A program made the translations under genes and the position numbers. Shown here piece after piece: positions 13,371 through 14,261 of a DNA stretch of 16,450 nucleotides. This DNA is from a virus (taxonomy: Duplodnaviria > Heunggongvirae > Uroviricota > Caudoviricetes). The notes below the pieces were generated by a model. It made no database searches. It saw only the letters and a program-made list of their open reading frames with translations, and was not told the DNA's origin. How positions within the stretch are numbered: position 1 is the stretch's first letter; the number at the start of each line of letters is the position of its first letter. The stretch lies in the IMG/VR virus record IMGVR_UViG_2537561618_000007. The stretch is one strand, 5' to 3'.

Positions 13371-14261
13371 TCAGGCTGCCAGATCATCGTTTCCGACGGA
13401 AGCATAATAAGCTTTTTCTGCTTCTGCCGGAGGGATGTGGCCCAGCCTTTCCAGCAATCGTCGATTGTTATACCAGTCCACCCACGTGAGTGTGGCCAGT
13501 TCCACTTCTGCACGGTTTTTCCAGCTCTTACGGTGTATTACCTCCGCTTTGTAAAGACCATTGATGCTCTCCGCCATCGCGTTGTCATACGAGTCGCCTG
13601 TACTTCCTGTTGATGCCAGTAATCCGGCTTCCTTAAGCCGCTGTGTGTAGGCCAGCGATACATACTGAGAACCTTTATCACTGTGATGGACCGTGCCGGA
13701 CGGTCGACGGGCCCATAACGCCTGCTCCAGTGCATCCAGCACGAATGTCGTTTCCATGGACGATGAGACCCGCCACCCCACGATGTATCCGGCAAACACA
13801 TCAATGATGAACGCCACATAGACGAAGCCCCGCCATGTGCTGACGTAAGTAAAATCAGCCACCCACAGCTGGTCAGGTCGTTCTGCCACGAACTGACGGT
13901 TTACGCGGTCGCCTGCGGCAACGGCTTTCCGGCTGATGGTCGTACGGACCTTTTTACCCCGGAGAACACCGGCAAGTCCCATAACCGCCATGAGACGTGC
14001 CACAGTGCATCTGGCCACTCTGATACCTTCCCGTAACAACTGACGCCAGACTTTACACCGTATACCTTGTGATTTTCATCGTATACGCGCTGTATCTCTT
14101 TCTTCAGCCAGTCATCGCGCTGCGCACGGGCACTGCGTTTATCCGGATGATGTCGCTGTTGCTGACAGTGGTAATACGTTGACGGGGCAATATGCAGTTC
14201 GCTGCATAGCGGTCCGCCCCGTACTGCTCACGCAGCTTATCCAGCAGTGGCATCATTTTTT
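13371..14261 (-). pseudogene. IS629 OrfB, disrupted by two frameshifts
   Basis: Three segments matching the recalled OrfB sequence sit in three different frames: [13 protein letters not shown], then [54 protein letters not shown], then from 14039 [13 protein letters not shown]... to the C-terminus. Consistent with 1-nt and 4-nt deletions. Confidence 0.65.

Follow-up and report, generated by a model that had tools for sequence, protein, structure and literature searches.

A doubly deleted and probably non-autonomous IS629 copy in a decayed prophage/IS cluster of Shigella flexneri 4343-70, with defects likely spread in part by gene conversion

The IS629 copy analysed here is very probably a degenerate, non-autonomous element within a decayed prophage/IS cluster of the Shigella flexneri 4343-70 chromosome, and its defects have very probably spread in part by gene conversion. 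The analysed stretch of DNA (the window, 16,450 nt) is the entire contig AFHC01000021.1 of draft assembly GCA_000213475.2, which derives from S. flexneri 4343-70 (PMC5429569; PMC6397287). The intact reference was a 1310-bp copy from Escherichia coli CE10, for which the PGAP annotation reads IS3 family transposase with programmed frameshift, and a 1306-bp copy from S. flexneri pINV served as a second alignment reference. The extent and ends of the window element are as follows:

13329-14633, minus strand: IS629 copy of 1305 bp (intact copies, 1310 bp)
14609-14633, minus strand: left terminal inverted repeat (IRL, orfA end), 25 nt, 92% complementary to 13329-13353
13329-13353, minus strand: right terminal inverted repeat (IRR), 25 nt, pairing imperfectly with IRL
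13326-13328: left copy of the target-site duplication CAC, read from the sequence
14634-14636: right copy of the CAC duplication, equivalent to IS600 positions 182-184

Alignment showed that the 25-nt ends, which are imperfect inverted repeats starting with TGAAC as is typical of IS629 (approximately 25 nt), are identical to those of intact copies, and it bore out the claim that this copy is 5 bp short (1305 versus 1310 bp). At the nucleotide level the window element is 99.1% identical to the intact CE10 copy, 99.5% identical to the pCP301 copies annotated as IS629 ORF1/ORF2 and 99.7% identical to the 1306-bp pINV copy. Matches of at least 99% identity occur in thousands of E. coli and Shigella records, and matching E. 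coli copies carry the PGAP label 'IS3-like element IS629 family transposase'. An empty IS600 site (CTTCCTGAAGGCACTTTAGG) has a single CAC, whereas the window element is flanked by CAC on both sides, a 3-bp duplication. We propose that this IS629 copy, or an intact ancestor of it, landed in IS600 at positions 182-184 and produced the CAC duplication.

Exactly two gaps separate the window copy from the intact CE10 copy, and together they break orfB. The affected features are:

between 14216 and 14217, minus strand: 1-nt deletion, the T of reference position 418, after OrfB codon 13
within 14054-14057, minus strand: 4-nt deletion, reference positions 579-582, OrfB codons 68-69, inside HTH_21
14256-14218, frame -2: OrfB residues 1-13, from tblastn with the intact 296-aa OrfB
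14215-14051, frame -1: OrfB residues 15-69, from tblastn and three-frame translation
14075-13374, frame -3: OrfB residues 64-296, from tblastn with the intact 296-aa OrfB
14104-14256, minus strand: 50-aa ORF produced by the 1-nt deletion, with 13 OrfB residues followed by 37 out-of-frame residues
13371-14039, minus strand: 222-aa ORF in frame -3, OrfB residues about 75-296 with the rve/DDE core (PF00665, E 1.2e-27)

Three-frame translation and tblastn agree that the OrfB segments lie in three different frames, as the original prediction had described. A continuous OrfB frame, which would have refuted that prediction, is not present: the alignment reveals two gaps. Both predicted deletions exist, but their positions, given as near 14220 and 14045, were off by approximately 4 and 10 nt, respectively. 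The exact placement of the 4-nt deletion is ambiguous (GTGC, TGCG or GCGT) because of a flanking GT repeat. A continuous 296-aa orfB with HTH_21 and the DDE (rve) core is therefore absent from the window copy: HTH_21, which spans residues 47-104 of intact OrfB with a score of 66 bits, is reduced to a 27-bit fragment, and the rve core survives only in the 222-aa stump. An exact-protein look-up of this stump returned no record, presumably because gene callers picked another start codon.

The region upstream of these lesions retains the elements associated with programmed frameshifting:

14253-14579, minus strand: orfA, open, 108 aa, HTH_Tnp_1 (PF01527, E 1.1e-10)
14256-14261, minus strand: A6 run at the orfA/orfB overlap, the presumed -1 slip site, same as in intact copies
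14183-14298, minus strand: ALIL frameshift-stimulating pseudoknot (RF01497), Rfam score 111.3 bits

OrfA had been predicted to be intact. Its 108-aa frame is indeed open, but the protein carries two substitutions relative to the intact copy, V51G and L76P, the second of which places a proline at the first leucine of the heptad L76-L83-L90-F97 and may weaken the OrfA leucine zipper. P76 is common to all pCP301 copies. orfA lies in element frame 1 and the start of orfB in frame 3, a -1 relation, and we take the A6 run to be the slip site from what is general for the IS3 family. The pseudoknot follows the apical-loop-internal-loop (ALIL) model and scores 111.3 bits in the window copy versus 120.2 bits in the CE10 copy. 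The missing U corresponds to ALIL model position 83, where the internal loop UCGGAC begins. Judging by base complementarity, this loop can pair with GUUCGA, the apical loop of the hairpin upstream; on this model, the 1-nt deletion would cost the loop-loop interaction its A-U pair.

From these reading frames, the window copy should still be able to make OrfA, with proline at the first heptad leucine, while a -1 slip would yield a truncated fusion of approximately 158 aa, terminated by the stop codon of the 50-aa ORF and devoid of the DDE domain. The OrfAB transposase would thus be out of reach and the copy could not move itself; the frames predict no autonomous transposition. The proposal that the copy is non-autonomous is supported in that no OrfAB can be encoded. 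As both ends are intact, the transposase of an intact IS629 elsewhere could in principle act on the copy, and such a transposase could be supplied in trans by an intact Shigella copy, such as that of S. sonnei pINV.

The net 5-nt loss places the frame of the 222-aa ORF in register with that of orfA, and this alignment of the DDE-containing C-terminal part with orfA raises the idea that an active transposase is still made through extra recoding that bridges both deletions. The existence of eight pCP301 copies, all of which carry the 4-nt deletion, is in line with this idea. Three-frame translation nevertheless places four stop codons between orfA and the C-terminal part in that same frame, on which ground read-through or recoding rescue of OrfB was rejected. 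In addition, part of HTH_21 is lost with the 4-nt deletion, the deletion sites show no slippery motif, and further random lesions (1, 20 and 3 nt) in other copies are as neutral decay predicts. We consider the probability of such rescue to be negligible and retain the reading of the window copy as non-autonomous.

A draft contig from 2011 raises the possibility that the frameshifts are sequencing or assembly errors and that the strain really has an intact 1310-bp IS629 here. The window makes up the whole of such a contig, and a G4 run abuts the 1-nt deletion, although the lost base is a T outside the G run. The exact 50-aa product is found in three places: AFHC01000021.1, AFHC01000022.1 from the same assembly and the complete chromosome CP026810.1. 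An exact 61-nt probe for the 1-nt deletion added one more record, the S. boydii NCTC 9733 plasmid CP026844.1. Both deletions are present in all four of these copies, two of which, the complete CP026810.1 and the complete S. boydii CP026844.1, come from other assemblies, and the 4-nt deletion is also carried by every full-length pCP301 copy and by many other complete plasmids. Each of the three other doubly deleted copies also has lesions of its own, namely 1 nt in the C-run of orfA, 1 nt at 805, or 1 nt plus 20 nt. Because both deletions recur in independent assemblies, they appear to be real and should not be read errors, the independence of those assemblies being the sole guard against sequencing error. 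We therefore regard an error in the contig as highly improbable. As a separate observation, reference position 418, the base lost in the window, is changed from T to G in the pCP301 copy at 42886-44191, which may be coincidence or may mark a mutable spot beside the G4 run.

The two deletions have very different distributions. Reconstruction of pCP301 from five stretches gave eight full-length IS629 copies that could be scored; all eight have the 4-nt deletion, and none has an intact site. All 13 aligned Shigella copies from outside S. sonnei carry the deletion, and it is present in each copy examined from S. flexneri, S. boydii and CP026810. Loss of these 4 nt is the usual condition of IS629 copies of the S. 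flexneri type, and the window copy, which lacks reference positions 579-582, belongs to this lineage. No earlier description of a 4-nt-deleted IS629 was found in the literature. The truncated ORF2 of this lineage is already present in the public pCP301 annotation, where the 669-bp 'IS629 ORF2' features encode the same 222-aa stump. Exact matches to a full-length probe for the 4-nt deletion were confined, within the complete E. coli set, to 14 records from nine strains, all with large plasmids. These strains include CFSAN029787, presumably an enteroinvasive E. coli (EIEC), as well as VL7S7 and VL40, the best chromosomal relatives of the window. The deletion is not universal in Shigella, as the intact S. 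sonnei pINV copy (pInv_75_02_1) has all 1310 bp and encodes a 296-aa OrfB.

The 1-nt deletion is rare. With an exact probe, it was detected in a single one of 2264 probe-matching plasmid records and in none of 4799 E. coli records. It is absent from all eight pCP301 copies, two of which are also 1305 bp long through a different 1-nt loss at reference position 1222. An exact 40-nt pattern spanning the deletion had no matches among species-representative genomes, a set in which Shigella is probably folded into E. coli. The rarity of this lesion means that it could be used as a lineage marker.

Comparison of orthologous insertion sites indicated how these defects may have spread. The intact S. 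sonnei pINV copy (positions 1115-2424 of the retrieved locus) shares its insertion site and flanks (CAAAAAGCTTAA and GTTGCTGAACTG) with the 4-nt-deleted pCP301 copy at 32042-33347. Similarly, the doubly deleted S. boydii copy (positions 3616-4899 of the retrieved locus) has the same flanks and insertion site as the pCP301 copy at 143062-144368, which has only the 4-nt deletion. The SNP backgrounds of IS629 copies are mosaic, and the target duplication is kept in only two of the eight pCP301 copies. As orthologous sites differ in deletion state, SNPs are mosaic and few duplications remain, gene conversion and recombination among copies are demonstrably at work. We propose that gene conversion accounts for at least part of the transfer of these defects from copy to copy; together with recombination, it is enough to explain their spread. 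For the window copy itself, we infer the route of spread from these sequence comparisons. The contrasts at orthologous sites cleanly illustrate how IS copies undergo gene conversion with one another.

Alternatively, the window copy was already doubly deleted on arrival, as one of a lineage moved in trans by an intact IS629/IS1203-type transposase, and is thus non-autonomous yet not immobile. Doubly deleted copies do sit between perfect 3-bp duplications (CAC at 182-184 in the window and GCG at 282-284 in CP026810), both terminal repeats are intact, and an intact IS629 is present in Shigella, in S. sonnei pINV. The orthologous-site contrasts, however, indicate that gene conversion can write deletions into and out of resident copies, doubly deleted copies have mosaic SNP backgrounds, and the six of eight pCP301 copies without a duplication point to heavy recombination among copies. 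IS3-family transposases also prefer to act in cis, a further point against movement in trans. On balance we think arrival in the doubly deleted state unlikely, though a serious contender. A broader proposal, that the IS629 of S. flexneri, S. boydii and EIEC is a wholly transposase-less lineage kept uniform by gene conversion with occasional movement in trans, is speculative and strikes us as doubtful; were it true, the doubly deleted form would have reached IS600 at CAC 182-184 (window) and GCG 282-284 (CP026810) after transposase loss. We continue to favour spread at least partly by gene conversion.

The other doubly deleted copies were also associated with IS600. In AFHC01000022.1 (positions 2600-3970 of the retrieved locus), the doubly deleted IS629 has an identical junction between IRL and IS600 position 184, but its IS600 is without the 27-bp deletion described below, unrelated DNA adjoins the IRR end, and there is no duplication (GTG versus GTT); these junction features therefore point to recombination between copies or to duplication of the junction. 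The CP026810.1 copy (positions 2625-3928 of the retrieved locus) lies in IS600 orfA with a GCG duplication, exactly 100 bp downstream of the IS600 site used in the window. The pCP301 copy at 42886-44191 also abuts IS600, and IS629 seems to land in IS600 repeatedly.

In the window, the IS629 copy sits between two inverted parts of IS600:

14637-15691, plus strand: IS600 3' part, the insertion target, with a 27-bp in-frame deletion in orfB
13318-13328, plus strand: 11-nt remnant of the 5' side of the target (CCTGAAGGCAC)
12269-13320, minus strand: second IS600 3' part, inverted, with the same 27-bp deletion and 2 SNPs

On the right, CAC TTTAGGACAATGG leads into the IS600 3' part, whose right end is at 15691; a chromosomal DUF4132 gene fragment and an IS1 end follow. 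The inverted arm on the left (12269-13320) adjoins prophage lysis genes. Both arms carry the 27-bp in-frame deletion just past the first catalytic aspartate, which no other IS600 in the fetched loci has, and they differ from each other at two positions, 13184 and 13200. All transposase genes in this 3.4-kb block are defective. The left junction falls inside the IS600 quasi-palindrome CCTGAAG GCA CTTTAGG, 8-11 nt from the IS629 end, and as one piece (inverted IS600/IS629) it was found in none of 5426 E. coli genomes. This junction fits an origin by deletion between 7-nt quasi-repeats in two IS600 copies that lay head to head, or by a fold-back template switch, and it could also be a chimeric join in the draft assembly.

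The suggestion that the IS629 defect helps to stabilise the inverted IS600 structure around it finds no support. Elements of the IS3 family transpose by copy-out-paste-in, in which the donor copy stays in place, and a 1-kb inverted repeat is threatened by homologous recombination and palindrome processing rather than by the IS629 transposase. We also considered whether the IS600-IS629-IS600 block is a pseudo-compound transposon with an IS600 right end on each side. We rejected this idea: the outer 3-bp flanks are not the same (GTC versus GTA), no E. coli genome has the joined flanks as one contiguous sequence, and the left flank is prophage DNA while the right flank is the DUF4132 gene fragment.

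A 205-aa ORF (15659-16276) begins in the IS600 right end and crosses the DUF4132 (molR-like) fragment; it is exactly conserved in many chromosomes (151 index blocks). Ten other chromosomes have the same junction between IS600 and this ORF, with an intact IS600 preceded by a WGR fragment and metG, and neither IS629 nor an inverted arm was present at the junction in any of these ten. One of them, CP012137, is S. flexneri 2a strain 981 (PMC5429569).

The window contains at least four different IS types in total. Positions 1-291 lie inside IS600 (5' end, reverse orientation) and include an empty IS629 target site, while approximately 16270-16450 end inside IS1, and such repeat-bounded contig ends are typical. 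A further IS3-family element spans about 926-2180 (ORFs 691-1299 and 1326-2165), and the copies in relatives are annotated as IS911. Rfam models identified isrK (4043-4119, 58 bits) beside a C4 antisense RNA (4144-4231, 75 bits) in the prophage early region (4043-4231). Four tRNA genes (9373-9683; anticodons CAT, Arg-TCT, Thr-TGT and Gly-TCC, where CAT is assigned to Ile by PGAP in a relative) are located between the Q antiterminator region, which lies upstream of them, and the lysis genes, which lie downstream; related prophages of E. coli VL7S7 and VL40 show the same arrangement.

Decayed IS copies are commonplace in Shigella, and the window copy is a fossil mobile element of the ordinary kind. 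The number of IS629 copies in an S. flexneri-type genome should not be taken as a count of active elements.

Compared with intact IS629/IS1203 (CE10 and S. sonnei pInv_75_02_1), the window copy shares the 25-nt ends, orfA, the A6 run, ALIL, the rve/DDE core and a 3-bp duplication, but it is 5 nt shorter, has breaks in OrfB following codon 13 and at codons 68-69, and carries V51G and L76P in OrfA. The 1306-bp copies of S. flexneri pINV (pCP301 and pAR-0424-2) are closer, at 99.5-99.7% identity, and have in common with it the 4-nt deletion, the G51/P76 OrfA and the 222-aa stump, whereas the additional deletion at 418 is the window's. Both deletions are shared with the copies in AFHC01000022.1, CP026810.1 and CP026844.1, from which the window copy differs in site and SNP background. 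Like other non-autonomous IS derivatives, it keeps both terminal repeats and lacks a translatable transposase gene; unlike the miniature derivatives among them, it is full length and gives no sign of having been amplified as such.
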